NCBI GenBank assembly: GCA_964187785.1
Contig: CAXLNC010000052.1
Location: forward strand, 62,001-126,000
DNA from: Amphiscolops sp. MND2022
Taxonomy: Eukaryota
Direction of reading: 5' to 3'
Length of the DNA stretch: 64,000 bases
A model generated the notes under the pieces. It worked only from the letters and a program-made list of their open reading frames with translations. It had not been told where the DNA came from and ran no database searches. The translations under genes and the position numbers were made by a program. Positions 5,881 to 64,000 of this stretch are shown here, in pieces. Each line of letters starts with the position of its first letter. Positions within the stretch are counted from its first letter, which is position 1.

Positions 5881-6444
5881 CGCACTCAAGTTCTTACCTG
5901 GGGGTGGCTCGGAGGTGGCCTTCGAGCGGTCCCGCTCAGACAGGGATCGGACAGGCAGTTTTAAAACCAAACATGCTCTTTAGAATCCAAATGAACCTTG
6001 CATTTAAATGGCTCAGAAAACATGAGATGAACCTTGCGTTTCAAAGGATCATGTGGTCCGACTGATCTAAATTGCAACCTTTTAAAAGGAAGCAGANNNN
6101 NNNNNNNNNNNNNNNNNNNNNNNNNNNNNNNNNNNNNNNNNNNNNNNNNNNNNNNNNNNNNNNNNNNNNNNNNNNNNNNNNNNNNNNNNNNNNNNNNNNN
6201 NNNNNNNNNNNNNNNNNNNNNNNNNNNNNNNNNNNNNNNNNNNNNNNNNNNNNNNNNNNNNNNNNNNNNNNNNNNNNNNNNNNNNNNNNNNNNNNNNNNN
6301 NNNNNNNNNNNNNNNNNNNNNNNNNNNNNNNNNNNNNNNNNNNNNNNNNNNNNNNNNNNNNNNNNNNNNNNNNNNNNNNNNNNNNGCTGCTCAGACTCGT
6401 GCATTTTTGATGGAGCCTGCGCGCACACACACGCACATCACTTG

Positions 6445-7804
6445 TCAGTCAAGACGGCAATTCAAAGTTTCTTTGCGGTGGCGGCGAATCTGGTACGTGT
6501 GCGGGAAGAAGCGCAACTGGTTAAGCTCGAAATTGGCATGGTCAAGGTCAGCTTTCAGCTTCTTGTTGGCTTTCTCTAACTTGGCAATCTTAGTGGCGAG
6601 TTCGAGTGGACTGGCGTACTCCACTCGACGCGCCTTTCCCCGCTCGACTCGCTTCATGACACCGGTGCGCTCCAGCAGCCTGACCTCATCTCTCAAGGCA
6701 GCCTTCCGCTTGTGCAAACACGTTGGGCCACCTTGCTGCTCGCTTGCCCACGGCCTTCCCGCAATCTTGGCATTGCCCCAACCTTGAAGTGCTGACTTGC
6801 GCTTTATTGCAAGCTGCAGCCTCACAATCCTTGTTGCAACAGTAACCACGACCGCGTCCATGCAGGGCCTCTCCGCATCCATCGCACACACGTCTGGTGC
6901 TGATCCTTGCAACACATGGGTCTCGCACGCACTTCTGTGGCTTCGGCAATGGCTTGCTCTGCCACCGCTTAATCTCTCGAGAGACCACAGTCTTGAGGCG
7001 GCTTGGGCGGACTGCTGGAAACTCGGCCCTGATAGTGCTGAGGATGGTTTTCTCGTTCCATCCTTCGTCATAACCGAGAATCTCTTGGATCCTCAAAGCA
7101 TAGTCTGCAAAGACTGGCGGCTCCTCAGTGTTTGCAGCCAAATCAGGATCAGACCTGACATCGTCGTTGTCAGCTCGAGAGACAGCGGCCTCTTGGTGTC
7201 GCCTCTCTATAGCCGCTGGCATTTCGTCTTCACCTGCGAGAGTGGGTGTATCTTAGGGGGGGACATGATCATTTGTGCGCTTTCTCATTGAAAGTCGATA
7301 AGATTTTCATAAGTCTTCCTCGGGTCACCTGCGGACACCGCTGAGTCTGAGCCCTTTGCTCGCACTCGCTGGACAAGGAGATCGTAGTGGTTCACTCCAT
7401 TGTAGAGAAGATGTATGCAATGAGCATCCTCAGAAACGCTAGGATGTGTTGCTTGATACTTACGCTGTAGCTTCGTGTCATGGACAATGACTTGCCTGTT
7501 GGTCATCTTGGAGAACGCCCACTATGACCATGTGGCCACCATACTTCTCTGGGTCTGCAGCGAGCTTACTAGCTTCTTCTGACCACAAGCGCCCATCATC
7601 ACCTTCGAGTGGTGCTTGATCCAACAGGTATTCAATGATAGCAGCACGCAGAGAAGCTGCCTGGCCAACTGTGGGAACGGCTTCTGAGAGAGCATGGAAA
7701 AGGCATAGTCCATCGCCTGGCACGCGGAGAGTATCCATGTGGCCTGGCACTTCTGCTTCAGGTTCTGCCATCCGAGCGTCAACCCTGGACGAAATTTGGG
7801 ACAT
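6445..7804 (-). pseudogene. Frameshifted copy of the OTU/zinc-finger gene (intron 7234-7328)
   Basis: Same sequence as 21680-23037 but with single extra C bases near 7519 and 6729 that split both exons. These could be real mutations or base-calling errors. Confidence 0.7.
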
Positions 7805-10800
7805 GTCAACAACTGCAACTGCAAGGAGGGGTGGGAGGTGCTTGAGCTAAGGGGCTGCGGCTGTCTCTAGAGTGGACTGATACATAGGAGAGATCTTCGC
7901 GTGTGCCGAGCCAAGGGAACATCAGCTCCACCATGAAGAAGGGAAGGCTGAACACCACACACACACAACTGCACAGGAACGGATATGTGCCGCACATGCG
8001 CTCACAATCTGCAGCAGATAGATGTGTGAAGGGTCTACAAATGGGAGGGATGACAAAACTGAAGGAGGGCGATGTCTACGCACACCGAATCTCCACAAGG
8101 AAGAGCTTCTTTCCCACTGACTCTTGAGAGGTTGGTGGTCAGACTGATCACACAGGCACAGGCTCTTCACAATGCAATGAATCCTAAGCATGCCGACGCG
8201 AAGTACATTAAGACGAACTCTTATCAGACACACCTGCCCTTCAGAATAGAGAATCTACTACATCGCGCTGGTCCCCATAAACAAGCCACCTCAGTATATG
8301 TCAAAACGGTGGAAAACAGACCCCGAAAACAAACAGACCCCCAAAACACAAGTTCAGCAAACGAGCTTCACCAGCAATCTCCCGAAAACATTTTCTTGCG
8401 ATGGTGTGGTTCAACCTCAACATGGCTAATGTAAATTTAATCTTGCACGTTTTGTCGCTGCTCAAGGATAGCTACATGTGCATGTACATGCATATATACT
8501 ATAAGTAAAGTCTCTATGTATATGAAGATACGTATATTACATATAGTATTATTATACACATATCGCTTGATTGGGATGTGTGTGTGGGGGGCGTCCAGAA
8601 ATGCAGCCGCCCACTTCCCAAGACAGATGCATCCAAAAGGTAAGGTGCACAGTGTGTGAGGGCCAATTTCTCAGAACTTTGCCTCACATCCAAGAATGAT
8701 TCTTTATAAAGGGAGGGGGGGGGGGTTATGGTTTTTTTTGCTCCAAGTGTCTTGAATTGTTTATAAGAAATCACCCCAGAAACAAACACATTACAACTGC
8801 CAAATACAATGCGTTTCTGTCCTTATTCTTGNNNNNNNNNNNNNNNNNNNNNNNNNNNNNNNNNNNNNNNNNNNNNNNNNNNNNNNNNNNNNNNNNNNNN
8901 NNNNNNNNNNNNNNNNNNNNNNNNNNNNNNNNNNNNNNNNNNNNNNNNNNNNNNNNNNNNNNNNNNNNNNNNNNNNNNNNNNNNNNNNNNNNNNNNNNNN
9001 NNNNCACCTTAGCAAAAGGAGGGGGGGGGGGGTTAACAGTAGGGTCTCGGGCACAAAACCAAAACGGCGTGCCTGATCCCTACGGGTAGCCACCCCGCCC
9101 CCCCCCGAGAGAATGAAAATGAAGATGAGGCGATGAATTGCACAAAAAGGAAAAAAGGAACAAAAAAGGAGACAAGGAGTAGAAAGGAGAAAATAAAGAG
9201 AGAGGGCAACAAAAAAAGGAGGCCTAAAAAGAGATATAGAGAGAGAAGGAGAGAATGAACAGAAGGAAAAAATGAGAAACAAAGGAACTTTTTCCTACAA
9301 ATTAACGAAAGTTAAACAACCAAACATTTTTCTCTGTAAGAGGTTTTTTCTTGATGCTCATGTTTTCAAATCGCGCGATTGGAGTTCTGAGGTTTTTTTT
9401 TTTAATGTTTGCATGTGTTCTTTTCAGAACCATCTCGTCCGGTATCGTCTTCCCTCCGCGCAAGAGCGACTTGGTCAAGGCCCCCCCTTAAGAACTCTTC
9501 TGCAATAAGAACCATGACCGGTTTTCTCCGCACTTTTGGACGAGCGATTTCATTTGAAAAACCATTTTTTATGAAATATTTCTCGAAAACGAGCTTTTCT
9601 TTGAAAAATCCTTTTTTTTAATGCTAGTTTTTTGTTTTTAAACTTTTTGGGGGGGACAATATTTTTAGTTTTCGATTTTTTGGTAACAAAATATTTGACA
9701 TTTTTGAAATATTTAAACTAGTTTTGAACAATATTTGAGAAATATTTTTTGAAAACTAATGTTCTGAAAAAAACAGAATAACAGGTCATGTTTCTTAGTG
9801 TAGGAGGGTTCTTAAGGGCGACCTGCATCATATCGATCTATCATAATCATCCCATTTTTAAGATAAAGTTGGTGGCCCCCTCACTCCGATCAGGGGGAGG
9901 GGGACGAAAATCCCAGCCCTTCAACAGGGATGTCCGGAAATCGGGGGCGCAGGATGATGGAGGATGAGAGGGGGGGGGGTCTGGGGGAGGGGTCTAGGTA
10001 GCAGAGCCAGAGGGAAGAACCTCAGCCTGCTTACGCAGCCCAACGCTACCCCCCTCCTTCCAAGGGCCCATGTTTACCATCCGCCCTCACATCGGAGGGG
10101 GGGGGGCACACCTTGAGGGGAGGGGGGTAGAGTTGCGGTAGCGGTAGGGAGCGGCTAAACTCCCCAAGCCCTTGCCCCCAGTTGTGTTGCTTGCCGCGTT
10201 CTCCGCCTACCTTTTTATGGTGGAGCCCGGCAAGCAATACAGGTGGGGTGGGGGTGCTATTGGGGGTTTTTGCCTGCCCCCGCCCCGCCTCTTCACTCAG
10301 GATTGCCGTGCCGCACCAAGAGCGAGAAGGTGGGGGAGGGGACAGGGAAGATCGTCGTAAGGCTTCCTTCTACCCCCCTTCCCCTGGTGCCGCCCCGGAG
10401 AAAAAGGCGCCAGGGGAAGGGCGGTGGAGGGGGGGGGTAATCAGTTCCCAATACCAAACTCGCCCTTACCCCTCCCTGTTCCCATTTTTGGCACTGACCT
10501 AAGCCCTAAACGGTCAGTGCCTGGACGGGAGTGGGCAGGAGTCCCCATATGACTGACAAAAATACGACTCCAAACAAACAAGCTTAGGACACTTGATTTC
10601 ATATTTAATGATCTGAGGCAAAAGGTCTTGCGATCAGCGGGGTGCAGATGCAGAATGAATACAAGAACATTAGAGAATACCCTTCTGTCCATTGATTTAT
10701 GATTTGGGCAAACCCTCCCAGCAATCAGCTTTCTGATGAAGACAAAATCACAAGAGTCAATGTGTCAGGGAATTGTTTTCAAAATATCAACTTTTCCACA

Positions 10801-21120: not shown

Positions 21121-21679
21121 CAAGTTCTTACCTGGGGGTGGCTCGGAGGTGGCCTTCGAGCGGTCCCGCTCAGACAGGGAATCGGACAGGCAGTTTTAAA
21201 ACCAAACATGCTCTTTAGAATCCAAATGAACCTTGCATTTAAATGGCTCAGAAAACATGAGATGAACCTTGCGTTTCAAAGGATCATGTGGTCCGACTGA
21301 TCTAAATTGCAACCTTTTAAAAGGAAGCAGANNNNNNNNNNNNNNNNNNNNNNNNNNNNNNNNNNNNNNNNNNNNNNNNNNNNNNNNNNNNNNNNNNNNN
21401 NNNNNNNNNNNNNNNNNNNNNNNNNNNNNNNNNNNNNNNNNNNNNNNNNNNNNNNNNNNNNNNNNNNNNNNNNNNNNNNNNNNNNNNNNNNNNNNNNNNN
21501 NNNNNNNNNNNNNNNNNNNNNNNNNNNNNNNNNNNNNNNNNNNNNNNNNNNNNNNNNNNNNNNNNNNNNNNNNNNNNNNNNNNNNNNNNNNNNNNNNNNN
21601 NNNNNNNNNNNNNNNNNNNNGCTGCTCAGACTCGTGCATTTTTGATGGAGCCTGCGCGCACACACACGCACATCACTTG

Positions 21680-23037
21680 TCAGTCAAGACGGCAATTCAA
21701 AGTTTCTTTGCGGTGGCGGCGAATCTGGTACGTGTGCGGGAAGAAGCGCAACTGGTTAAGCTCGAAATTGGCATGGTCAAGGTCAGCTTTCAGCTTCTTG
21801 TTGGCTTTCTCTAACTTGGCAATCTTAGTGGCGAGTTCGAGTGGACTGGCGTACTCCACTCGACGCGCCTTTCCCCGCTCGACTCGCTTCATGACACCGG
21901 TGCGCTCCAGCAGCCTGACCTCATCTCTCAAGGCAGCCTTCCGCTTGTGCAAACACGTTGGGCACCTTGCTGCTCGCTTGCCCACGGCCTTCCCGCAATC
22001 TTGGCATTGCCCCAACCTTGAAGTGCTGACTTGCGCTTTATTGCAAGCTGCAGCCTCACAATCCTTGTTGCAACAGTAACCACGACCGCGTCCATGCAGG
22101 GCCTCTCCGCATCCATCGCACACACGTCTGGTGCTGATCCTTGCAGCACATGGGTCTCGCACGCACTTCTGTGGCTTCGGCAATGGCTTGCTCTGCCACC
22201 GCTTAATCTCTCGAGAGACCACAGTCTTGAGGCGGCTTGGGCGGACTGCTGGAAACTCGGCCCTGATAGTGCTGAGGATGGTTTTCTCGTTCCATCCTTC
22301 GTCATAACCGAGAATCTCTTGGATCCTCAAAGTATAGTCTGCAAAGACTGGCGGCTCCTCAGTGTTTGCAGCCAAATCAGGATCAGACCTGACATCGTCG
22401 TTGTCAGCTCGAGAGACAGCGGCCTCTTGGTGTCGCCTCTCTATAGCCGCTGGCATTTCGTCTTCACCTGCGAGAGTGGGTGTATCTTAGGGGGGGACAT
22501 GATCATTTGTGCGCTTTCTCATTGAAAGTCGATAAGATTTTCATAAGTCTTCCTCGGGTCACCTGCGGACACCGCTGAGTCTGAGCCCTTTGCTCGCACT
22601 CGCTGGACAAGGAGATCGTAGTGGTTCACTCCATTGTAGAGAAGATGTATGCAATGAGCATCCTCAGAAACGCTAGGATGCGTTGCTTGATACTTACGCT
22701 GTAGCTTCGTGTCATGGACAATGACTTGCCTGTTGGTCATCTTGGAGAACGCCACTATTACCATGTGGCCACCATACTTCTCTGGGTCTGCAGCGAGCTT
22801 ACTAGCTTCTTCTGACCACAAGCGCCCATCATCACCTTCGAGTGGTGCTTGATCCAACAGGTATTCAATGATAGCAGCACGCAGAGAAGCTGCCTGGCCA
22901 ACTGTGGGAACGGCTTCTGAGAGAGCATGGAAAAGGCATAGTCCATCGCCTGGCACGCGGAGAGTATCCATGTGGCCTGGCACTTCTGCTTCAGGTTCTG
23001 CCATCCGAGCGTCAACCCTGGACGAAATTTGGGACAT
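21680..23037 (-). CDS. Spliced gene: N-terminal OTU-like cysteine protease, then CxxC zinc-finger/ribbon motifs and a coiled coil. Exons 23037-22563 and 22467-21680; may continue into the N run.
   Basis: OTU catalytic motifs VPGDGLCLFHAL (D-x-x-C) and HLLYNGVNHYDLL (His). A 95-nt GT-AG intron (22468-22562, phase 1) joins ...SAVSA-G-EDEMPAA in frame. Downstream motifs are CDGC, CCNKDC, CQDC..CPTC and LATKIAKLEKANKKLKADL. Confidence 0.8.
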
Positions 23038-23527
23038 GTCAACAACTGCAACTGCAAGGAGGGGTGGGAGGTGCTTGAGCTAAGGGGCTGCGGCTGTCTC
23101 TAGAGTGGACTGATACATAGGAGAGATCTTCGCGTGTGCCGAGCCAAGGGAACATCAGCTCCACCATGAAGAAGGGAAGGCTGAACACCACACACACACA
23201 ACTGCACAGGAACGGATATGTGCAGCACATGCGCTCACAATCTGCAGCAGATAGATGTGTGAAGGGTCTACAAATGGGAGGGATGACAAAACTGAAGGAG
23301 GGCGATGTCTACGCACACCGAATCTCCACAAGGAAGAGCTTCTTTCCCACTGACTCTTGAGAGGTTGGTGGTCAGACTGATCACACAGGCACAGGCTCTT
23401 CACAATGCAATGAATCCTAAGCATGCCGACGCGAAGTACATTAAGACGAACTCTTATCAGACACACCTGCCCTTCAGAATAGAGCTACTACATCGCGCTG
23501 GTCCCCATAAACAAGCCACCTCAGTAT

Positions 23528-26500
23528 ATGTCAAAACGGTGGAAAACAGACCCCGAAAACAAACAGACCCCCAAAACACAAGTTCAGCAAACGAGCTTCA
23601 CCAGCAATCTCCCGAAAACATTTTCTTGCGATGGTGTGGTTCAACCTCAACATGGCTAATGTAAATTTAATCTTGCACGTTTTGTCGCTGCTCAAGGATA
23701 GCTACATGTGCATGTACATGCATATATACTATAAGTAAAGTCTCTATGTATATGAAGATACGTATATTACATATAGTATTTTTATACACATATCGCTTGA
23801 TTGGGATGTGTGTGTGTGGGGCGTCCAGAAATGCAGCCGCCCACTTCCCAAGACAGATGCATCCAAAAGGTAAGGTGCACAGTGTGTGAGGGCCAATTTC
23901 TCAGAACTTTGCCTCACATCCAAGAATGATTCTTTATAAAGGGAGGGGGGGGGTTATGGTTTTTTTTGCTCCAAGTGTCTTGAATTGTTTATAAGAAATC
24001 ACCCCAGAAACAAACACATTACAACTGCCAAGTACAATGCGTTTCTGTCCTTATTCTTGNNNNNNNNNNNNNNNNNNNNNNNNNNNNNNNNNNNNNNNNN
24101 NNNNNNNNNNNNNNNNNNNNNNNNNNNNNNNNNNNNNNNNNNNNNNNNNNNNNNNNNNNNNNNNNNNNNNNNNNNNNNNNNNNNNNNNNNNNNNNNNNNN
24201 NNNNNNNNNNCACCTTAGCAAAAGGAGGGGGGGGGGGTTAACAGTAGGGTCTCGGGCACAAAACCAAAACGGCGTGCCTGATCCCTACGGGTAGCCACCC
24301 CGCCCCCCCCCCGAGAGAATGAAAATGAAGATGAGGCGATGAATTGCACAAAAAGGAAAAAAGGAACAAAAAAGGAGACAAGGAGTAGAAAGGAGAAAAT
24401 AAAGAGAGAGGGCAACAAAAAAAGGAGGCCTAAAAAGAGATATAGAGAGAGAAGGAGAGAATGAACAGAAGGAAAAAAAGAGAAACAAAGGAACTTTTTC
24501 CTACAAATTAACGAAAAGTTAAACAACCAAACATTTTTCTCTGTAAGAGGTTTTTTCTTGATGCTCATGTTTTCAAATCGCGCGATTGGAGTTCTGAGGT
24601 TTTTTTTTTAATGTTTGCATGTGTTCTTTTCAGAACCATCTCGTCCGGTATCGTCTTCCCTCCGCGCAAGAGCGACTTGGTCAAGGCCCCCCCTTAAGAA
24701 CTCTTCTGCAATAAGAACCATGACCGGTTTTCTCCGCACTTTTGGACGAGCGATTTCATTTGAAAAACCATTTTTTATGAAATATTTCTCGAAAACGAGC
24801 TTTTCTTTGAAAAATCCTTTTTTTTAAATGCTAGTTTTTTGTTTTTAAACTTTTTTGGGGGGACACTATTTTTTAGTTTTCGATTTTTTGGTAACAAAAT
24901 ATTTGACATTTTTGAAATATTTAAACTAGTTTTGAACAATATTTGAGAAATATTTTTTGAAAACTAATGTTCTGAAAAAAACAGAATAACAGGTCATGTT
25001 TCTTAGTGTAGGAGGGTTCTTAAGGGCGACCTGCATCATATCGATCTATCATAATCATCCCATTTTTAAGATAAAGTTGGTGGCCCCCTCACTCCGATCA
25101 GGGGGAGGGGGACGAAAATCCCAGCCCTTCAACAGGGATGTCCGGAAATCGGGGGCGCAGGATGATGGAGGATGAGAGGGGGGGGGGTCTGGGGGAGGGG
25201 TCTAGGTAGCAGAGCCAGAGGGAAGAACCTCAGCCTGCTTACGCAGCCCAACGCTACCCCCCTCCTTCCAAGGGCCATGTTTACCATCCGCCCTCACATC
25301 GGAGGGGGGGGGCACACCTTGAGGGGAGGGGGGTAGGCGCGTGAAACAGGTACAATGTGGCAAATTGGCGTTCTAACCTGGAAACCGTGCACATTTTGGC
25401 CATTTTGAGGGGTTTCTTAGGTCTCTAGCTACAACCACTCGGAAACCCTGTTTATGCTATAAATTCCAATAGAAAACCACTTTCTGGAGGCATCAAGACA
25501 AGTAGAAAGAATGTGTCACTTTACGTCCAAACCCTTCGAAAGTCTCTCCTTATTTTTGTAGTGCCAAAACGCCGAGAATGACCGATTTTGGGCCAAAAAA
25601 GTGCACGGTTTCCCTGCCAGAACGCCAATTTGCCACATTGTACCTATTTCACGCATATACGGGGAGGGGGGTAGAGTTGCGGTAGCGGTAGGGAGCGGCA
25701 AGCTTGCCGCGTTCTCCGCCTACCTTTTTATGGTGGAGCCCGGCAAGCAATACAGGTGGGGTGGGGGTGCTATTGGGGGTTTTTGCCTGCCCCCGCCCCG
25801 CCTCTCAAGAGCGAGAAGGTGGGGGAGGGGACAGGGAAGATCGTCGTAAGGCTTCCTTCTACCCCCCCTTCCCCTGGTGCCGCCCCGAAGAAAAAGGCGC
25901 CAGGGGAAGGGCGGTGGAGGGGGGGGGGTAATCAGTTCCCAATACCAAACTCGCCCTTACCTCCCTGTTCCCATTTTTGGCACTGACCTAAGCCCTAAAC
26001 GGTCAGTGCCTGGACGGGAGTGGGCAGGAGTCCCCATATGACTGACAAAAATACGACTCCAAACAAACAAGCTTAGGACACTTGATTTCATATTTAATGA
26101 TCTGAGGCAAAAGGTCTTGCGATCAGCGGGGTGCAGATGCAGACTGAATACAAGAACATTAGAGAATACCCTTCTGTCCATTGATTTATGATTTGGGCAA
26201 ACCCTCCCAGCAATCAGCTTTCTGATGAAGACAAAATCACAAGAGTCAATGTGTCAGGGAATTGTTTTCAAAATATCAACTTTTCCACATGCCGAAACTC
26301 AGTGAAACCAACAAAGGTTTCTGAACTAAATTGAAACGCTCTGGCAAAAGATGCGGTATGGAACCTCCATCGGAATCGATCAATTGATCTTATTTTTTTA
26401 GTGGAAAGGCTCTGGCAAAAGATGCGGTATGGAACCTCCATCGGAATCGATCAATCGATCTCATTTTTTGTGGTCACCACTTGTATCTGTAACTCTCATT

Positions 26501-51219: not shown

Positions 51220-52825
51220 TTGACAATCACTCGTTGCGACTCGAGCGACCATTTACAGGGCCCTCCGGGCCCGAAATCCCAAAAAAACGTCTCAAAAAGA
51301 GTCTTTATGGGGGTCTGCGAGAAAGTCCCCGAAAACACCCGAAAAACTTCAATTTTGGGTATTTTTCGACTTTTCCGGGCATTTTCGGGGACTTTTTTGC
51401 ACACCCCCAAGCCCTGATCTTCTTTTCCTTGTTTTTTTGAAATTCCTTGCCGTTTTGGCCCCAAAAAACAAGGATTTTTTCAGAAAGTGTGGGTTTTAAG
51501 ACATTTTTAGACTATTTAGCAAGGAATTAAGCCCAAAAAAGGAAGGAATCCTGCTATTTTCCCCAAAACAGCAAGGATTTCCATTAAAAAAAGGCAAGGA
51601 TTTTTATGCAAGGAATTGCCCAAAAAAGCAAGGAAAAAAAAAGCAAGGAATTTTGAGAGTTTTGCCTCCAAAATTGATTGCAGCTGGGAGTGTGTGCATG
51701 CAAGGGCCATGCTCTCTCCCTGAGACTGTCTGTGCTTCCTCCCTGCATCTAGCTCCTTCTACTTAACTGGATCTGGGATCTGATCTTATATTTGAGTCTG
51801 GAATGCCTCTGTTCCTCACCTAACCTGCAAATGTGATACATGCCATGCTGGGTCTGTTGAGCCTCTGGGTTTCTGCCAAGCCTCCCTGCAGCTGCAGGAA
51901 ACTGATGGCCTCTTAGCTATTTGTCTTAAATGCACCTCTCAAATAATTTCAGTGTCCTATCAAAAATTGTGTCGCCAAGCTCCTAAAGAGCACTTAATTG
52001 AGCACCTGCATGCATGCTAGATCGACAATGCCTATCCTGAGATGGAAGATGATGAAGTGTGCACTTGTTCATCTTGTTGCTTGCACATGCATTTGTCTGA
52101 GTTGTGAACACCTATATTGGGCCAAGGGCCCAGGATGGAGGTGCTTGCAGTGTGCATTTTTTGTGCACAATGTGCATGTTTTTGAGCAATGCCTCCCCTC
52201 AACTACATATTATTCATGATGGCCATGCATGCATACAAGGTACCTCATGTTGATGTTGCCATTTTCAGAAGTGCTTAGGCTTAGTTGCCTGCCCTAGCTG
52301 GCACTTTGAGTGTCCTGCAGGTGGGCACATCTGGCATGCAAATCACATCCAACCCCATCACCCCTAGCTGTCCAAAATGTCAGTTGAATTGGGTGTCTCT
52401 GACAGTCTGGGTTGGGAGAAGTATATAGGAGAAGTAAAAGAACACATCTATATATATATATATAACCCAAAGGTTGGAGCTTGGAGATATTCTTGCCATC
52501 CCTGAGGGAGCTTGAGGCCTGCAACAAACCAGACAAGCAACATCAAAAAAACCCTGGAAGACAAATCATATCACAACCAATTCCTCAAACTTTTCTGCAA
52601 GATTTTGGATAACTTGCATGGTGGTGATTCCTACTTGCTTGTGTGCCCTATCTTGCTGAACACTGAATGCCAAAACATGCCACAACCAATTCCCATGATT
52701 TCTGCAAGAGGGCCTGGGGTTCCAAAAACCTTGTTTGGAGCACTCTTGTCTGGGTTGTGCCTTTGAGATTGGTGGTGATTCCTACTTGCTTGTGAGCCCT
52801 ATCTTGTTGGCAGAGCTTGGTGGGT

Positions 52826-53600
52826 GTCACTCCAAGGCCTACTAGCTTGCATTGGGTGGCATTGTTGCAGCCAAGGCCTACTAGCTTGCATTGGGTGGTT
52901 GCATTGCAAAGGCCTACTAGCTTGCATTGGGTGGTGGCATTGCAAAGGCCTACTAGCTTCTTGCCAAGGCCTACTAGCTTCTTGCAAAGGCCTACTAGCT
53001 TCTTGCAAAGGCCTACTAGCTTCTTGCAAAGGCCTACTAGCTTCTTGCAAAGGCCCTACAGCTCATCAAGGCATTGGTGAGAGTCCTAGCTATCCCTCAT
53101 CAATACATTGGTGAGAGCCCTACAGCTCATCAAGAGAGTGGTGAGAGCCCTGAACCTCATCAAGACATTGGTGAGAGCCCTGAACCTCATCAAGACATTG
53201 GTGAGAGCCCTGAACCTGAACCTCATCAAGACATTGGTGAGAGCCCTGAACCTCATCAAGACATTGGTGAGAGCCCTGAACCTCATCAAGACATTGGTGA
53301 GAGCCCTGAACCTCATCAAGACATTGGTGAGAACCCTACTTGTGCCAATTCTACCTCATCAAGTTCCTGTGTGTGGTGTTGCAGAGCAAGTCTACCTCAT
53401 CAAGTCCTTTGTGTGTGTGGTGTGCTAGCAGCTCTACCTCATCAAGTCCTTATTGTGTGTGGTGTTGCAGAGCAGCTCTACCTCATCAAGTCCTTTGTGT
53501 GTGGTGTTGCAGAGCTCTACCTCATCAAGTTGTTTGTGTGAGTGGTGTTGCAGAGCAGCTCTACCTCATCAAGTTGTGTGTGTTGCAGGAGCCCTACAAG
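52826..53600. repeat. Compound minisatellite (33-, 21-, 30- and ~40-bp units)
   Basis: AAGGCCTACTAGCTTGCATTGGG.., AAGGCCTACTAGCTTCTTGCA x5, CCTCATCAAGACATTGGTGAGAGCCCTGAA x~8, TCTACCTCATCAAGT..GTGTGTGGTGTTGCAGAGC x~6. Confidence 0.95.
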
Positions 53601-53815
53601 CAAAGTCTTTGTTGCTGTGGCTTGTGGTGAAGTGCCCCATTAAGTGAAGAGACAAGAGCTAGCAAGAGTCCTAAATTGAGAAGCAAGTAGTTCCCTGATC
53701 CTAGATGTTCTGGCAGCTGGGGCCTGAGATCATGGGGTACAGAATGGTTTTGCCAAAATTGTGGTGTATATATGTATATATACATATATATATATGTGAG
53801 TCCTTGCTTGCAGGT

Positions 53816-55534
53816 ATGCCTCCCAAAGATGGATATCATTGTCAAGCTCTGCAAGTTTTTCAACAACATGGTAAAACAATTGAGAGGCTTGGTTGGAAGC
53901 ACATGGACCCAGAGGAGTTTGCCACATGCTTCCTTCAGATGCTCAAAGGCTTGGGACAGATATCAGACAGGGTGAGAAAAAGTGAGTTGAAAGTGATAGT
54001 CCAGGATGGCAAATTCAGATTGTCCTCCTCTGAAATCCATTTGTTTGCAGAGAAGGTGGCATCAACAATCAAATTCTGCAAGCAAAAACTTCGAGACAGT
54101 GGATCAGGCAAGTTTCTACCTGCACCATGTGTTGCATTGAGGAAAATCTGGTCCAGAACCAGGATTGGGAAGACCTACATGAAGGGCAAGGCAAAGGGAC
54201 AGAAGCAGCAGAGCAGCCCCAAAAAGAAGGATGAAAAGGCTATTGGCATCAGAGATGTGTTTGGCCTTCCTCCAAAAAGAAAGTCTGAGCTGGTCAGGTT
54301 GGATTCCACTTCCTCATCTGAGGATTTTCAGCCAGCAACAAGAGTTTCTTCTTCAAGCTCTGCCCCTTCTGCACCTTCAAGTGGTTCTTGGGAGACCTGT
54401 CCAAAACCTCTGGGCCCAAACCAACACCCCAAATACCCACCATGAGAGAAAGAGCTCTAGCCATCTGAAAAATGGGGCCAGCAACTCAGCAAGGATATTG
54501 CTATTAAAGCCTTGTCTTGCAAGAACTCAATATCCCCATATGACCTAGGTTCAAAGGATGGACAAGCAAAGCTCATCTACTATGACATCTTCAATCTTCG
54601 AGCAGTTTGCAAAGGGCCTTTAGGGGAGCTTACCTTCCCTTTGTGTGAGATGCCTGGCAAGCAGAACTTGGTTTGGAAAAATGTTGAGGGAGACATTGTT
54701 GAAAGCCAGGTACCAAAGAAGTATCTCCAAGCAGTGATGAAAAGGCCAGCAGCACTGGCACCTCCCCAACAAAGAGGCAGCTAACAAAGAAGCAAAGGCA
54801 GCAAAGAAAGAAGCAGATCCAGAAGAAGAAGAGGAAAGTCAAGAGGAGGAGGAGGAGGCAGGTGAAGAACCTCAAGATGGGGATGCTGAGGATGATGAAG
54901 GCATGCTAGAAGAAGGTGAAGAGGAGGAAATGTTAGAAGATGAGGAGGAAGAAGCAGAAGAGCAAGAATGTGAAGCTGAGATAAAGAAGAAGAGGAGCAT
55001 GTGATTGGAGATGGAAAGGTGAGTGAGTCAGAGAAGAGAGAGGTGGAGGATGAAAAAGCAGAAAAGCAAGAAACAAAGGAGGAGATGAAGGATCAAAAGG
55101 CAGAGACTCAAGAGAAAGATGAGATGAAAGGTGAGAAGGCAGAGAGTGAAGAGCAAGATGAAAAGGAGCTCAAGAAGATGAAGAAGCCCTTGGTCATGAA
55201 GCCCTTGGTCATGAGAAAGCCAACATCATCCTCATCATCAGCATCATCATGGAAGCTGGTTGGCAAGAAGGCTGATCCTAACCCTGTCATTGATGGTGCC
55301 TACTATGTGAATGCAAAGAGTGGCAAGAACATCAGGGCTTACATATTGGCTCGCTATGGATCTGAGAAGACACAACTGGTGCAGATATCATCTCATGAAG
55401 CCTTGGCCTACAAGGCAATCACCAAGCAGATCCATGAAGAGGCCTTGGAGAAGATAGCATCAGGGGTGAGGTTGCAGGAGCTGAAGGCATGGGCAGCAAG
55501 CACAAAGCAAGCCCTCACAAGGTGGGCCATGTAG
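53816..55534 (+). pseudogene. Disrupted ~550-aa hypothetical protein: basic N-terminal domain, MKRPAA motif, long acidic tract, small C-terminal domain
   Basis: ATG at 53816 follows a CAG acceptor. ORFs 53705-54445 and 54512-54784 are in the same frame, separated by TGA and TAG (premature stops or a small intron). Frameshifts near 54770 and 54985 link to 55001-55534. Confidence 0.6.
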
Positions 55535-55711
55535 AGCAAATGCCATGGAATCCCTGTGCACACCTCATCTGATCCCCCAAGAAGTTCTAAACCCCATGAA
55601 AGCTCTAGAAAAGCCACTCATGGACACAAAGTAAGCTTGCATTTTTTGACCTTAATTGAGTGCTGGCATTGAGGGTTTAGGGGCCCTACATATCTCACTG
55701 ACTCTTTCATA

Positions 55712-55830
55712 TCTCCCTGCAGGTGAGTGAGTGCATGAATGAGAAGTACCCAGACAAGTTGCAGAGATGTTCTTTGTTCAGGACAAGGGCATTGATGCCT
55801 CCAAATCAACATGTGTGGAAGGCCATGAGT
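55712..55830 (+). pseudogene. Remnant of exon 2 of the 60664-61913 gene
   Basis: CAG|GTGAGTGAGTGCATGAATGAGAAGTACCCAGACAAGTTGCAGAG..TTTGTTCAGGACAAGGG..TTGATGCCTCCAAATCAACA matches 61181-61350 with deletions. Confidence 0.85.
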
Positions 55831-56284
55831 TGAGCCCATTGTTTTGGGAATAGACAAAACATCACCCATGTATATGCCAACTTGTTTGCTGGAGGCTTCT
55901 GACATTTTGCCAATCATAGCCACAAGAAACAACTCTGAACCCCATGGGATTGACTCAATGGCCCAGGGGCACATGGATCATGAACAACCAAGATTGCACA
56001 AAAACATGGTCGAACATGCAATGCAATACCTAAACATGAGTATGTATCTATCAAATAAATGTATTGACTAAGCAGGATGTTTGGGGCCTTTTTGACTTGT
56101 AAAGTTCTTGTTCCCTCCATTCTGCTTTTTGTTTTAGCAGATGACTACACAAGTTTGGAAAACATTGTTCCATTTTCATGTGATCATTGTTTGGCTTGAT
56201 GTCTTTTGAAGCATTGCATTGGTTCTCTTGAAGTGTGCACTTGGATTTTGAATGGTTTGGGCCTAGTGATGCTATGTCCAAACA

Positions 56285-56450
56285 ATGCATGGGGCCTCTT
56301 TCTTGGAAGCCTACATGCATGGGTGCTTATTCCTTGGATGCATGGGTCTTCTTCTTGGAAGCCTACATGCATGGGTGCTTATTCCTTGGGAGATGCATGG
56401 GTCTTGTTGGAAGCCTACATGCATGGATGCTCCCTTGGGAGATGCATGGG
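56285..56450. repeat. 3' minisatellite GGAAGCCTACATGCATGGGTGCTTATTCCTTGG, cassette 1
   Basis: About three units, homologous to 62200-62420. Confidence 0.9.
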
Positions 56451-56999
56451 TGTTTTTGTCCTAGCAGAGCACTCCAAGCTGTGCATGTAACACACTCATA
56501 CCTAAGGTTCAGACCATTTATCACAGATTGTTGATACCTAAGGTTCAGATCATTTATCTCAGACTGCTGTGAATTGCCAGATGGCTATAATCTGGCAATG
56601 AAAGGTCCTAATTTGGCATTGCAAGAAGGGCAAAAACAATAGATGCTTGTGTTAGAGTTGTCATCTTTTCATGGGGATTTGTTTCAGGAATGGTTGGGGC
56701 ATTTGTAGAGAAAAGTAAGAGTCTTGTATCTCTTCTAAAATTAACATCCCTTCTATGAGCTCAAGCTGGACAACACCCTGCAACAAAGTTGTGCTTGCAG
56801 AGTTGCTTGGGAGCCACTCCTTGAGGCCTTGCACAGTGAAGGACATTGAGCCCAAGCCTTGTGTTTATGTGGGTTTCTTTTTTGATCCACACTGAAGCCA
56901 CCCTTACAACCATAAGTAGTTTTTAGCCACCTTTTGAGCCACAATGGGTAGTTTTGGCCACCTCTGCAAGGCACTTCTGCAAGGCTTGAGCCATGCCCT

Positions 57000-57360
57000 T
57001 TGAGGCACATTGGGTAGCTTTTAGCCACATGCAATGGGCACAGCCTCCTTTGGAAGGCCAGCCCTTGAGCCACACATGCTAGCTTTTAGCCACAAGGCTT
57101 GCCCTTGAGCCAATCATGCTAGCTTTTAGCCACAAGGCTTGCCCTTGAGCCAATCATGCTAGCTTTTAGCCACAGCCTCTTGTGAAAGGCTTGCCTAGCC
57201 ACATAACATTGAGCCCCTTCATTAGCTTGCAGCCACCTTTGCTAGCTTTTAGCCACATAGCTTTTAAGAACAACTACAATGATTGCCTTTGATCCAGACA
57301 TTCTAGCTCTTAACCACATTGGTTTCAACATAGTTTTTAGCCACCTAGCTTTTAGCCTCT
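57000..57360. repeat. Degenerate TAGCTTTTAGCCAC repeat cluster
   Basis: The motif recurs about six times, including a 40-bp tandem duplication at 57075-57155. Confidence 0.85.
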
Positions 57361-60139
57361 TTTTGTCAGGGTCAACCCCTTGAGCCATACCACCTCATAT
57401 GTTGAAGCTAGCATTGGGCCAAGGCAAGCCTTCTCTTGAGATTGGGCACCTACTTGGTTCATATCATGGAGGATTGCATGAAGGAGTGGATGAGACACAC
57501 ACACATGGTTCACTTGGCAACAAGTTATTGCCACAACATTTGTTGCTAAGCAGAATGGAGTTTGGGGCATGTTAAAGATTGGTGCACATGCTTTTCTTAA
57601 ATTTTTATTCAAACATGAGTGTACACATATGAAGGGCAACATGGACACATACAAGAACACATGCATCATGATTAATACATGAGGCAAATCATGCACTAGA
57701 AATTGCACATTATTGAGGAGCATATTTATGCTAATCAACAACATGTATCCTAGTTCTATAAGTAGAGATGGGGGGACACAAGTTCTAATGAAAACTCATA
57801 TTGCACAATTGAAAATATAGACCTACAGGCCTTCATTGGCAAGGCAATGCATACATTTGGAAGAGCAGCTGGCTGGGATGCTTGTAGATGGCATGCATGT
57901 GAGTAGGTACATATATATATGTATATACATGTACATATATTGATATTATGAAATCATCTTATTGGCAAAGCAGATGTGACATAACATGTCAGTGACATAA
58001 CAGAAGTAGAAGCTATATGTAAGAGGCATCCCTGGCCAAGTTGCCACCAGCACTCTGCACTTTGATGATCTTGCAGCATTGTTGGATGAAAAAGTGTAAG
58101 CTTGCTTGCAGAAATTCACACCAAGCAAGAAGAGTGCCCCAAATCACACCACCCCTGTGAATCTATGGAACCCATGCTACCCTCAAACCCCACCCCTGCC
58201 AATGTCTGGACCCAACCTTGGTCTCAGAGATGTTGGGTGAGACAAGCTCCTGCACAGAAACCTATTTGCCAGCATTGGGCACATGTGGAGGAGATTGCTG
58301 TGGCTAGGGCTGTCAAGATATTCTTGCCAAATTGCCTAGATTGCCTATCATGTGCAGGAGATTGCTGTGGCTAGGGCTGTCAAGATATTCTTGCCAAATT
58401 GCCTAGATTGCCTATCTGCCACAGATGTGGAGGAGATAGCTGTGGCTATGTCTGGTAATCATGTCTGTTTGTTCATGGTGTGAAGCCAAGAGGTGTTCTA
58501 GTGAAGCTGCCTAGATGCCTATCTGCAAGCATTGAGCACATGTGGAGGAGATCATTGTGGCCAAACATGGCCCATTGTAGTGTTGCTAAGATATGACAGC
58601 TGTTTGTTGTTGATGTGGAGGTGGTTGTTGTGGTGGATGTTGAGAAACACCATGGCTGTCTGCAACAATTGAGCACATGTATCTGGAGGTGATCATTGTG
58701 GCCAAACATGGCTCATTGCATTGTTGCTTAAAATATGACAGCTGTTTGTTGTTGATGTGGAGGTGGTTGTTGTGCTGGTTGATGTTGAGAAACACCATGA
58801 AATTGTTGTGGCTGTTTGTGGTTGAATGTGATTGCTGGCTTTCAATCAAGCTACCTAAGGAATGCAGACTTCACAACCAAAGACAGGCACACACACAACA
58901 AGCCAGACACCACCATAAAATTACCAACTCTACATGTGTGCACAATCCACTAATCCAGTGAGCTGGCCACCTCTTGTTTGCACATTGGACCCAACCATGA
59001 CCAACACCATCCACAACTGAGTCAGCCTATGATTGGCACAAACCACTCCCCAATCCATGTGCACATTGTTGCAAGTGATGGCTTCCTGGTGTGCTGTCCA
59101 AAATCTGCCCCAAGCTGTGCTCAAAAATGTTAAAAAAAACATTTTTTTAACAGATCATGTTTTCAAAAATACACTATAAAACAAGTGCTTTGGGCCAAGT
59201 TAAAAGCAAGAAAAAATGTTAAAAAATATCATTTTTGAACACCTATTTTGTGCATTTATCCTATTTTTGTAGTGAATTTCAGTGCTCAAAAAAAAACTAT
59301 TTTTGAACAAGCCCAAAATCATTTTTGAGCACATTTTTGAACACTCCAAGGCATGTCACCACTATTTTCAAAGCACATGATCATATTTGAAGCTCATTGT
59401 TAAAGTTTTGGTTTTGTGCTCAAAAATGCTCAAAAATGCTCAAAAATGCTCAAACATGGGAATACATGGCAAATTGTGCCAATTGTGTGCTTGGTATAGA
59501 GATGTGTGCACTTGTCATCATCTTACATGCAAGTCTGTGTGTGAGTTTGCCTCACAGTTGTATCCTATATTTGGTCAAGGGTCCAGAATGGAGGTGCTTG
59601 CATTGCTTGTAAGCAAGACATGTGCAAACATGCATACCTCAAATGTCTTTCTGGAGGAGTGAAGGAAAGAATGTGAAGTGTTTGAGGATGCTTACATCAT
59701 TGCACTTGTGGCCATTTAGACAAGTTGAACTCAGTTGTGTTAGGCTCTGTGGCATCACAATTGAGTTGCCATCTCAGGTTGGCACACACCCCCATCCACA
59801 CATCCTCCTTCACCCTCCCAATGGAAACAAGCAGAGAGAAATCAAAGTGGTGGGTCTCAACTACTTGGGTCTAGGTGTGGCAGAGCTTGAGTGTGTGATA
59901 TGTTGCCCCAGAGGTTTGAGCTTGGAGCTTCTGTGCCATCCCTAAGGGAGCTTGAGGCCTGCAACAAATCAGACAATGAACATGCTGATAAACACACCTC
60001 AATTTCAAGATCAGTTGGCTTTACAAAATTGCTAAGCCCAAATTTGATGATTCAAAATTGTTGGTTTTCCTCCTAAGCCCAAAGTTGATGTTTGGTGTTG
60101 TCTGAGTTGTTGCTTCCAGATTGGTGGTTGCCCTTGTTG

Positions 60140-60663
60140 GTGACAATCTTGCAGAGCCCTACTGTGGTGCCAATTCTACCTCATCAAGTTCCTTGTTGTG
60201 GGTGTGAGTGGTGTTGCAGAGCCCTACTGTGGTGCCAATTCTACCTCATCATTGTTGTGGTGTGGTGTGGTGTTGCAGAGACCTACCTGTTGTGAATCCA
60301 AATCTACCTCATCAAGTTCCTTGGTGTGGTGTGGTGTTGCAGAGCCCTAGTGTGGTTCCAAGTCTACCTCATCAAGTTCCTTGGTGTGGTGTTGCAGAGC
60401 CCTAGTGTGGGTGAAAGTCTACCTCATCAAGTTCCTTGGTGTGGTGTTGCAAAGCCCTAGTGTGGTTCCAAGTCTACCTCATCAAGCTCCTTGCTGTGGT
60501 GTGGTGTTGCAGAGCCCTAGTGTGGTTCCAAGTCTACCTCATCAAGTTCCTTGCTGTGGTGTGGTGTTGCAGAGCCCTAGTGTGATTCCAAGTGTACCTC
60601 ATCAAGTTCCTTGGTGTGGTGTTGCTTAGCCCTACTTGTTGTGGTTCCCAGGTCTACCTCATC
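60140..60663. repeat. ~60-bp minisatellite running into the start codon of the next gene
   Basis: GTTGCAGAGCCCTAGTGTGGTTCCAAGTCTACCTCATCAAGTTCCTTGG x~8; the last unit reads CCCAGGTCTACCTCATC-ATG. Confidence 0.95.
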
Positions 60664-61913
60664 ATGGCCAAGACACCAAAGAAGAGCAAGACACATAGCC
60701 CAAAGAAGGCCAACAGCACCTTGCAGAAGCACTTCCAGAAGGCCACCCCACCCTCTGCAGCCAGCTCCTCTCAGGAACCTACCAGAGCCCAGACCAGCCT
60801 CTTCCTGACATATGTGAGGGCAACAGCAAAGGGAAAGGATGAGAGAGCAGCAGAGCAGGCCATGGAGCTTTCAAAGCACTACATGGAGCTCACAGTGCCA
60901 GAGAAGAAGGCATTGATCCAAGAATTTTTTAAAGTTGGAGGCCGCAAACAAGGTTTAAGCCTTTGCTTTGCCCAAGCCATTCACACAAAGCAGGCAGCTA
61001 GTGAGGGCACTTGGAGTGGATATGTGACACCAGGAGCTCTCATGGTGTTGGAGGGGGTGCCCTGGGATGTTTCAAAAATGTCCCCAACCATAACAAGGCT
61101 CTGAAAACCACAAGTCTCTCAATGTCTGGGGTTCCAAAATAGCCAGAGTTTCCAAAGTGTGGGGGATGCATCTGCCCTTGACAGGTGAAGGAGACTGACT
61201 TTGAGAGCTTTGATGAGATGTCTGATTGGTATCACAGGACATGTGATGAGTGCATGAATGAGAAGTACCCAGACAAACCCAATGCAAACTTCAAGTTGCA
61301 GAAGAGGTACTTTGTTCAGGACAAGGGGGTTGATGCCTCCAAATCAACAGAGCTGTGTGAAAGGCTTGAGAGGACCTCTGGAGATGCTGGGGCTGCATTG
61401 GGTTGCTTGGGCTTGGGTGATGCTCCAAAGAAAGGTAAGAGTGTGAGTGATCAGCATCGATTGGCATACACAAAGCTACAACAATCTATTTCAAAGCTTG
61501 GAAGGTCATTGGGCATCTGTGAGCAGACAATGCCTGCCCAGAAAAGGCAGATGACTCCAATGGCATTCCAGAAGTACAAGCAGGGCTTCCACTCATGCAG
61601 AGATTGCAGGGATCAAGCACTTGATGAGGCAGAGGACTTGAAAGACCCTGAGGAGGGGGAGATGTTGGATTGCATGGATAAGATCACAAAGTTGCAAGCA
61701 AAGGTCAGTGAGCACTTGGATTGCTTGCTGGAAGCCATGCAGAACCATGCCCCAAAGAAGATGAAGAAGGAGGATAAGAAGGATGAGAAGAAGCCTGCTC
61801 AATCTAGCCAAGGACCCCATCACAAACAAAAAAGCAATCAACACCCAGACAAACAAACAACCACCCTGGGGGACATGAAAATCTCTCTTGCATGGGCAAA
61901 ACATCTTCTCTGA
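60664..61913 (+). CDS. Two-exon hypothetical protein, ~373 aa, with a helical/coiled-coil C-terminus (exons 60664-61056 and 61185-61913)
   Basis: MAKTPKKSK start. A phase-0 GT-AG intron (61057-61184; GGG|GTGCCC..TTGACAG|GTG) joins ..MVLEG-VKETDFES. Both exons are fully open; no family recognised. Confidence 0.7.
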
Positions 61914-62199
61914 GTTGTGTTTTATAGTTTTACTGTCTTTTGGCTTGGGAGACAGATGTATACCCTAGCCCTGTGCATGCAACCCTCAGGAGCACTCATG
62001 GATGGTGATGGAGCTGCCACTGGCTGATAGCAAAGTTGAGGAGGCCACTCTGGAACATGACCCTCCCCCAAAGAATGGGAAACTTGTTCTTGCTTTTGAC
62101 AATGTGCCTTGCCAAAATGCCTATTCAGACATTCAAGAAATGAGGTAGTGGTTGTGTTCTGGTTTGGTGCCCTTTTTTGGAGGACTTGGTGCTTGGATG

Positions 62200-62420
62200 A
62201 CAAGGCTACATGGGTGCTTATTCCTTGGCAAGCTGTGGGTGCTTAGTCTTGGTGGAAGCCTACAAGCATGGGTGCTTATTATTGGCAGGCTGTGGGTGCT
62301 TATGCCTATGGAAGCCTACATGCTTGGGTGCTTATTCCTTGGCAGGCTGTGGGTGCTTATGCCTATGGAAGCCTACATGCTTGGGTGCTTATTCCAGCTG
62401 TGGGTGCTTATTCCTTGGGA
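62200..62420. repeat. 3' minisatellite GGAAGCCTACATGCTTGGGTGCTTATTCCTTGG, cassette 2
   Basis: About four units, homologous to 56285-56450. Confidence 0.9.
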
Positions 62421-63014
62421 GCCAACATGGATGTCTTGCCTGACCAAGCCATGATGTTTAAGGTTGGCACTGCATTGAGTTAGCTAGGTGTGCTGTCCTC
62501 ATGTTCTTAAAACATCACACTAAGCTATAAACAAACATGTCAATCATAGATTGGCACATGTGTTCAGGCTTGGTCCTGGTTTGCTTGCATTGCACACACC
62601 TCTTTGCATGGGCCAACTTGAAGGCCCCTTTGGGCAAGATGCACTTGCTGTGGTTTGGGCATGATGACCACATGTATCAAAGAAGCAAGAGCAATAAGAA
62701 ACACTAAGAGCACACACTACAAATGTGAATATGGAGAGGGGGATGAGCACCTCAAACAATAGGCTGCACACAACCTAAACTTCTGACATGACCATGGCAA
62801 TGCAAGTATAAGCCAAGTTGTGCTGAGTTGGAGCTACATGATTGCAAGCTACAGCTTGACATGCTGCTTGAGCCTGGCAATGGAGAAAAAGAGTGGCTTC
62901 TCAGAGGATTCAGAAACATGGGCAGAGAAGAGAGAGATATAAAAATATGAAGAGATGAAGAGAGATAAATTGAGCAGAAAGAATGGGAGGGAGGTGGTAG
63001 AGAGAGAGATAGAA

Positions 63015-63075
63015 ATTCATAGATTGATAGATTGATAGATTGATAGATTGATGAATTGATAGATTGATGGATTTA
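63015..63075. repeat. (GATAGATT)n simple repeat
   Basis: Directly visible. Confidence 0.9.
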
Positions 63076-64000
63076 TTGATTTATTGAAAGATAGATGTAT
63101 ATATATATATAGAGATAGCTAGATAACCAGAAAGATAGATAGAAGATAGAAGAAGGTGACAAGAGTCACTAGATACAACAAAATGAGAGAGAGAGAGAAT
63201 GACAAACATAGAGCCACACTGAATAAATGAGATGCAAGGATGTGTGAGAAAGAGGGAAGATACAAAATAAAACAATGATATTCACACCCTCCCCCCCCAT
63301 CCAAAGATACTTGTATTTGGTGTATCTATAAATTTTTGTTGGAGGGAGACACATATACATAGATCAAGCCAGAGGAGGGATGGAGGGAGAGAGATAGAGA
63401 TAGAGAGAGTTGGGGATAAGCACCTAGAGATGGATAGACAAAAGGCAACATGATGAATTTGGAGGTTTGCATTGGAGAAGCCATGTGAAATGCACCCCCC
63501 CCCCCCAAACAAAAAATAAGACAGAATCTTCATGAGCCACCAAAACCCTGAACATCCAATGGATTGGCATGGGATTTCCTTGCAAATTCCATGGGCCCAA
63601 ACCCAATTTGCCATATTTCCCAACCACAATTCAGACATTGTTTTTTTTCACTTTGTCATTTGGGCATTTGGGGCTATGTGCTGTTTTTCATGTCCATGGT
63701 GTTGCATCAATGTTTGGTGGGGGGGGATGGGTGGGTTGGGGCAAAAGAGGTTTCTGCCCAATGCAATGTTTGGACCTGGCCTTTTGTTGTATTGAAATAT
63801 TGTTATGCCTTTTCTTTGGCATTGGATTCTTGGGGGGCAATGGGGGGGCTGCAATTTTTGGGTTTTTTTCTTTGGCAGTTTTCTTTTGGGGTAATGGGGT
63901 CTTTGGGGGTCAGGGGGCTGAGTTTTTTGGGAGGTAAGAGGGGTTGCCAGAGGTTGGGGTTCTTGGGGAGTGGTGGTGGATGTTGGTCCATGGAGGGGTT

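Follow-up and report, generated by a model that had tools for sequence, protein, structure and literature searches.

How can a block of DNA lose nearly all of its CpG dinucleotides while the genes that it carries stay open? The question is raised by contig CAXLNC010000052.1 (C65, 133 kb) of the 1.07-Gb assembly GCA_964187785.1 of Amphiscolops sp. MND2022, of which we analysed positions 62,001 to 126,000 (the window, 64,000 bp; coordinates without a contig name are window positions). An earlier note, made from the sequence alone, had described an almost CpG-free block at 51460-64000 and ascribed it to a long-lived mobile or viral lineage adapted to host CG methylation. We find that the block is very probably most of a gene-carrying DNA transposon bounded by terminal inverted repeats (TIRs). 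To the combined reading, that this TIR element encodes a RAG1/Transib-like transposase and that its CpGs were removed by element-focused C-to-T mutation, we assign a probability of roughly 0.65.

The CpG-free block and the element around it

Exactly 8 CGs lie in the 12,541 bp from 51460 to 64000, where 636 are expected from composition (observed/expected ratio, o/e, 0.013), and their contexts are those first reported, with TCGA at five and TCG at seven of them (plus strand). At the CG rate of the flank, such a count has a Poisson P of ~1e-177. The left neighbour (31001-51459) holds 797 CGs at an o/e of 0.70; it had been called CpG-rich, and the difference stands, but 0.7 is an ordinary value for these contigs. 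The reported excess of CATG and TGCA is about three-fold (142 and 147 vs. 47.6 expected for each), and the GC content is unchanged (45% in the block, 47% in the flank). [quoted passage not shown] Only 2 of 170 random 1-kb windows of these contigs have an o/e below 0.2, so that low CpG is indeed atypical for the surrounding DNA. Repeat DNA common to the MITE-bearing contigs covers 0% of the block, in keeping with the reported lack of MITEs; its share is 16% in 31001-51411 and rises to 45% in the right flank.

The left edge is abrupt, with 60 CGs in the 1 kb before 51412 and then 1 CG in 289 bp. The sharp bounds of the block were thus recognised correctly but not their places: the left edge is at 51412, not at 51460, and low CpG continues for 3 kb past the window, to the equivalent of position 67034. 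A search for the right boundary together with a test for TIRs revealed a pair of 28-bp repeats (CCCTG...CAGGG, 96% identical) exactly at both CpG edges. The block therefore forms the left four-fifths of a 15,623-bp element that extends from 51412 to C65:129034. On the plus strand the order is array, cargo gene A, a second array, a variable spacer, a related upstream module with its array, cargo gene B with an array, and the transposase (Table 1). Most large elements of the family hold element-specific internal tandem arrays, and the same motif occurs in two large clusters in two elements. By analogy, these arrays may recall those that anti-silencing proteins bind in the VANDAL elements of plants.

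Transposase, cargo genes and copies

The transposase open reading frame (ORF) is intact, and its predicted structure (pLDDT 86.9) finds its best fold matches in RAG1 (Z 14.8, r.m.s.d. 5.8, 449 aligned), ProtoRAG (12.9), Transib (10.3) and P (10.1), with a Foldseek E of 6.5e-7. All 19 aligned transposases keep the residues D162, D264, E524, C286, C289, H349 and H503. From this model, the element is predicted to encode a RAG1/Transib-like DDE transposase. Pfam gave no match above cut-off for the transposase or 34 homologues (35 proteins), and the transposase profile collects 8,434 clusters at E 0.001. By language-model features, the nearest named cluster is Plavaka (0.91, 150/256 shared).

The CMCT clade comprises EnSpm/CACTA, Mirage, Chapaev, Transib, Plavaka, ESTA, Lanisha and also RAG1, and its traits include CA..TG termini in most cases and a 2-5-bp target-site duplication (PMC12730594; here and below, PMC numbers stand for the passages on the point at issue). 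The window family shares with this clade the DDE triad D162/D264/E524, the C(2)C motif (C286, C289), a histidine in the helical insertion and the RAG1/Transib-like fold, as well as short TIRs, subterminal repeat arrays and extra genes; a 2-bp duplication is seen at same-ended MITEs but at none of four large elements. It departs from the clade in its termini, which are CCC..GGG and not CA..TG or TGT..ACA, in having H(3)E in place of H(3-4)H, and in lacking both a Pfam match and cargo genes of known family. Because of the deviant termini and the position of the second histidine, we file the family as CMCT-like and not as a member. Plavaka (PF18759) likewise occurs in large gene-carrying units; PlavakaA makes 2-bp duplications, and giant Plavaka-flanked repeats in Amoebidium are hypermethylated, CpG loss not being described in the passages cited (PMC11244446). 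On the other hand, PF18759 matches neither the transposase nor its 34 homologues, Plavaka termini are TGT..ACA or CATCA..TGATG (PMC12730594), and no tyrosine recombinase or TET/JBP cargo was recognised in the window element.

The open gene at 60664-61913 that had drawn attention to the block is cargo gene B, and it is open as two exons (60664-61056 and 61185-61913) around a 128-nt GT-AG intron. Its exon pair is found again on C849, C1755 and C1343 (39-47% identity for exon 1, 30-35% for exon 2), and intronless distant forms are present in C65a and C1193. Gene A consists of three coding pieces (~53816-54280, 54560-54754 and 55256-55516) that are 38-42% identical to the same region of C1755; it may be frameshifted in the window copy. 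Both genes lie ahead of the transposase in unchanged order, with identities of 29-47%, in C1755 and C1343 (in C1343 with one piece of A), and B occurs in C849. Since A and B recur in other elements, the open gene is a conserved element gene, and with an intact transposase beside it the view that CpGs were lost while the genes were under constraint is supported. No Pfam family above cut-off was found for the cargo ORFs. For gene B, exon 2 has one near-identical match, the exon-1 profile has 9 unnamed matches, and the protein atlas search gave no usable match; the model of an intronless homologue (pLDDT 57) has no fold match at E 0.001. As to whether the unit is mobile or viral, the TIRs, the transposase and the conserved cargo genes speak for the former and for its arrival as one block, whereas the sole recognisable gene is a DDE transposase and 8 ORFs scanned gave no Pfam match to capsid, packaging ATPase or polB.

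Other large elements provide four more complete TIR pairs starting with CCC, and the termini are CCC..GGG in 5 of 5 large pairs. MITEs with the ends of the window element (20 exact terminal matches) have a 2-bp target-site duplication in five of five cases, and the element is a candidate autonomous partner of this abundant family. In runs X1 and X4, which are one sample, element contigs have a depth of 57-102 vs. 5.4-6.8 for unique flank contigs, contig depth not being the same as copy number; the element contigs are nearly identical across the transposase, with just 3 differences over 1015 bp, break off at the final base of the TIR (L007:3034) and fan into 9 and 6 unlike flanks, some of these loose ends possibly being MITEs. 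Within the variable segment (57047-58314) the depth falls from ~90 to 0-7 in X1/X4, with no drop in X5 and X6, two runs from two other studies that also contain element pieces; copies thus vary in structure. The pattern suggests a recent burst with a dozen or so young copies, whose youth would explain the absence of MITE insertions. A rearranged look is seen at C1193:59956-81907 (L072-L074), where two inverted element halves (93% over 5.6 kb) enclose an insert resembling a long interspersed nuclear element (LINE). A second, distant CpG-poor TIR element lies on C65 itself (C65:2838-15755, L013/L012; 12.9 kb, o/e 0.07) with a glutamine-rich ORF, and its right end adjoins a 2075-aa copia-like gag-pol frame.

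Where and how the CpGs were lost

All 12 delimited elements, the window element included (160 kb), have an o/e of 0.035-0.154; they were found by their transposase and their limits were set partly from the CpG profile, so that the low values depend in part on how the limits were drawn. A copia element adjoining one of them has an o/e of 0.53; the value is 0.57 for a LINE that sits inside an element, between element parts at 0.048 and 0.044. Depletion extends to a 3.3-kb non-coding element at C1052:1007-4337 (L234), unrelated to the window family and with no ORF recognised, which has perfect CG-rich 29-bp TIRs, a 9-bp target duplication with one mismatch and an interior o/e of 0.097, with TCGA at 4 of 11 CGs; by these features we take it to be Mutator-like. 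Four plain ~190-bp MITEs sharing the window TIR hold 7 CGs in 767 bp, similar to the element's own ends. The same-ended MITEs, considered as a control for transposition-coupled mutation, are CG-poor like those ends and do not discriminate. CpG-poor short islands without a transposase were seen at C1210:800-2300 (L233), C820:8900-10000 (L232) and C250:9000-11000 (L231), the last being a repeat of low complexity where a copia-like ORF ends.

The contexts of the surviving CGs follow a simple rule. TCGA accounts for 126 of 525 CGs in the 11 non-window elements, but in host DNA for only 738 of 8942 (P 1e-25). A model of additive per-strand loss fits these data (deviance 6.6, df 6, p=0.36), with loss terms of 72, 56, 24 and 7.4 for a neighbouring A, C, G and T, while a context-free model (deviance 276.7, df 9) and a multiplicative one (29.8, df 6) do not. 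In host DNA the terms are only 1.3-2.3; host repeat pairs show 36 CG-TG/CA differences vs. 26.9 expected (~1.3-fold), and the tandem duplication of the window 3 vs. 2.1. Compared to host DNA, an excess of loss of ~16-fold on average and ~50-fold in the window block is needed. A strand-additive neighbour rule points to mutation rather than to plain selection, and we consider a mutational origin of the CpG loss probable. An upstream A raises CpG mutability in primates also (PMC13245866). The proposed adaptation to host CG methylation finds no support in this mutation-like rule of survival or in the like depletion of the unrelated TIR element. A single long-lived lineage is not supported either, because CpG-poor members occur in scattered places on the transposase tree: on a quick midpoint-rooted tree that kept 65 of 94 rows once short pieces were removed, and that contained no Plavaka, EnSpm or Transib references, no fewer than 9 changes are required to account for low CpG, which is seen in two distant lineages of the assembly.

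RIP-like TpCpG hypermutation (RIP, repeat-induced point mutation) of transposons in Pucciniomycotina (PMC3318451) resembles the present case as a transposon-confined C-to-T loss of CpG with neighbour dependence. There, however, TCG is the target, while it is the survivor in the window family, whose genes are intact; the high-copy MITEs of the flank, copia and LINE are also largely spared here. RIP with a CpA or TpCpG target was rejected since TCG is best preserved and CA is in excess (1.55), and RIP on any duplicated DNA in view of the values given above for the duplication, host repeats, copia and LINE. SymbioLINE-Dnmt retrotransposons are CG-depleted as well, which has been ascribed to the mutability of 5-methylcytosine in a comparison of retrotransposon types only (PMC5890265), and share with the window family a family-specific CG loss in mobile DNA of Symbiodiniaceae. 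In contrast to them, the window element is of class II, and the C5 methyltransferase family PF00145, with 5 matches in the assembly, has none on C65 or other element contigs. A DNMT-carrying element of the SymbioLINE or DIRS-Dnmt type was rejected for this reason, the cargo exons being without a Pfam family; as far as tested at the sequence level, the CpG-removing process would not be element-encoded. C5 methylase fragments on the dinoflagellate-like contigs C1674 (L282) and C265 (L284), with a local o/e of ~0.61, possibly represent DNMT-carrying retrotransposons.

The element likely moves by cut-and-paste. We envisage that the transposase, with the cargo proteins, would bind the TIRs and CAAGGAW arrays, excise the element and reinsert it with a 2-bp duplication, and that it would also move the MITEs with shared ends. 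The CpG cytosine of each strand would be lost independently, about 10 times faster beside A than beside T, which would leave TCGA as the longest-lived context. The likeliest chemistry, judged from the sequence pattern, would be deamination of 5-methylcytosine produced by a host methyltransferase concentrated on the elements. Lineages that kept transposing would have purged their CpGs through synonymous and tolerated changes, such as arginine written as AGR, under purifying selection on their genes, so that the genes stay open. A bolder form of this hypothesis, tentative and rather unlikely as it stands, is a genome-defence hypermutator of Symbiodiniaceae directed against large cut-and-paste transposons of several superfamilies, which would convert CpG to TpG strand by strand and spare TCG, MITEs and retrotransposons; the surviving autonomous elements would then be an unnamed RAG1-like superfamily already emptied of targets.

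Several observations weigh against the combination of such a transposon with element-focused mutation. Symbiodinium CG methylation is reported as uniform at ~70%, in genes and transposons alike (PMC5890265), and this alone gives no 16- to 50-fold local excess; a process concentrated on the elements is postulated because the excess goes beyond it. Three transposase relatives in the assembly are little depleted (o/e 0.33 in C551, 0.59 in C1611 and 0.58 in C1779). The inverted duplicate of C1193 has 7 CG-TG/CA differences vs. 8.0 expected at the baseline rate; its CGs, of which 12 differ and 9 are shared, may suggest a hypermutable pair, but the differences match the gains expected at baseline. 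The strand-of-mutation test gave a rho of -0.6 with a p of 0.2 at an n of only 6. In the transposase, the second histidine of H(3-4)H is replaced by a glutamate, E507, in 90% or more of the aligned proteins. None of four large two-ended elements has a target-site duplication (AG/GT, TG/TA, AA/CT, TG/GT; C1193 was excluded from the count as an inverted duplication), and the MITE on the left flank is cut at the terminus, its missing part not continuing on the right flank. The window copy is thus either something other than one clean insertion or carries mis-paired flanks. Near-identical 15-kb copies may have led to mis-pairing in an assembly of low coverage; alternatively, copies may recombine or remove the DNA next to them. 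The limits given above for the depth data of X1/X4 belong here too.

Could selection on the element have removed most CpGs instead, in line with the earlier note, because CG-poor copies evade methylation-dependent silencing or bind their own proteins better, which would favour their transposition? In its favour, the genes are open and have been recoded (arginine AGR:CGN 36:12 in the transposase and 27:4 in four cargo exons vs. 3:7 in a peridinin-chlorophyll protein (PCP) host gene), the depth pattern hints at recent spread, and no ongoing hypermutation was seen in the C1193 pair. The most broken relatives are the richest in CpG, which is suggestive only, being confounded by lineage, and with a methylase that prefers certain neighbours, selection would depend on context as well. 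Against this, non-coding DNA shows the heaviest loss and the lightest is in the transposase, where 10 of 93 synonymous C3|G1 sites are still CG vs. 0 of 86 in the cargo exons (P 0.002); the non-coding Mutator-like element is depleted as well, close relatives span an o/e of 0.04 to 0.59, and in the passages cited Symbiodinium CG methylation is reported as uncorrelated with transcription (PMC5890265). We regard selection as an unlikely main cause. Less likely still is a loss of CpGs elsewhere, in a more mutagenic host or virus, followed by recent horizontal transfer. The sharp edges, the wide o/e range of relatives in 80 plankton metagenome loci (0.03 to 1.15) and a DNA search of the assembly that gave only this one close copy would suit such a transfer, but within one assembly the signature is common to two distant transposase lineages and a TIR family unrelated to them, TCGA makes up only 52 of 469 CGs in 23 CpG-poor metagenome loci, the MITE family with the same ends implies long residence, and the GC content of the block matches its flanks. 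That the block is an assembly chimera or a piece of a foreign contig is very improbable, even though the contig is co-assembled non-host DNA, the flanks fail to match as a single insertion site and no contig among those listed spans the junction, since a TIR pair marks both edges, block pieces occur in runs of three studies with X1/X4 ending at the same terminal base, other contigs show the same pattern, and mis-paired flanks would leave the element real.

Features, source of the contig and implications

Table 1. Features of the 15,623-bp element and its left flank, in window coordinates unless a locus or contig is named.
Feature	Position	Strand	Remark
Left-flank palindromic MITE	51246-51411	.	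right arm ends at element terminus
In-window part of the element	51412-64000	+
Left TIR	51412-51439	+	28 bp, begins CCCTG, also found in ~190-bp MITE family
Left subterminal CAAGGAW array	51431-51650	.	both orientations
Upstream module 1	52111-52543	+	two patches, 87-88% like 59564-59983
Tandem arrays upstream of gene A	52834-53574	+	21-44-bp units, 12 CCTCATCAAG motifs
Cargo gene region A	53816-55534	+
Decayed fragment	55720-55823	+	76% like gene B exon 2
Downstream tandem array 1	56285-56450	+	GGGTGCTTATT motif, like 62209-62429
Variable segment	57047-58314	.	also CpG-free
Tandem array upstream of gene B	60149-60634	+	60-bp unit, 7 CCTCATCAAG motifs
Cargo gene B	60664-61913	+	two exons, intron 61057-61184
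Downstream tandem array 2	62209-62429	+	57-bp unit
Transposase ORF	L007:707-2407 = C65:126707-128407	+	566 aa, CpG o/e 0.21
Right subterminal CAAGGAW array and right TIR	L007:2914-3034		element end C65:129034

The large chromosomes of the assembly are AT-rich (GC 30-42% in four stretches sampled), and none of the 38 transposase matches or 20 TIR matches falls on them, all being on other contigs. Such contigs include a tandem PCP array and three matches to what we take to be the spliced-leader motif (contigs C579, C1301, C131 and C1910 were noted). From these marker genes on similar contigs, we infer that C65 is dinoflagellate DNA of the Symbiodiniaceae type that was co-assembled with its host; the symbiont genome is represented only in fragments within the assembly. 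A contaminant contig had been named as a finding that would count against the earlier reading, and this is half the case: C65 indeed does not come from the organism of the chromosomes, yet the block is still anomalous among dinoflagellate-type contigs. Elsewhere in the window, ~15 kb of DNA is duplicated in tandem and almost without change within positions 1-31000, so that 6000-9000 recurs at 21200-24200; it contains ORFs, for example 22519-23079 on the minus strand, that by eye have the look of an OTU-type protease.

A full-text literature search found nothing on CpG-free dinoflagellate DNA transposons; its scope did not extend to Repbase, to papers behind a subscription or to the supplementary files of PMC5890265 and PMC12730594, where the family may be catalogued. 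The locus likely records a transposon-focused C-to-T process that we did not find in print for coral-symbiont algae. The feature is real, and its CpG-loss signature is unexplained yet quantifiable. Dinoflagellate CG methylation has been described as a uniform default that carries no local meaning, and a CpG loss of ~80-98% relative to the flanks means that large DNA transposons are treated differently. The fingerprint A>C>G>T can be compared with the flanking preferences of dinoflagellate methyltransferases or deaminases. Moreover, the transposase family is large though unmatched by Pfam here, and CpG-free islands offer a cheap route to autonomous DNA transposons in these genomes.

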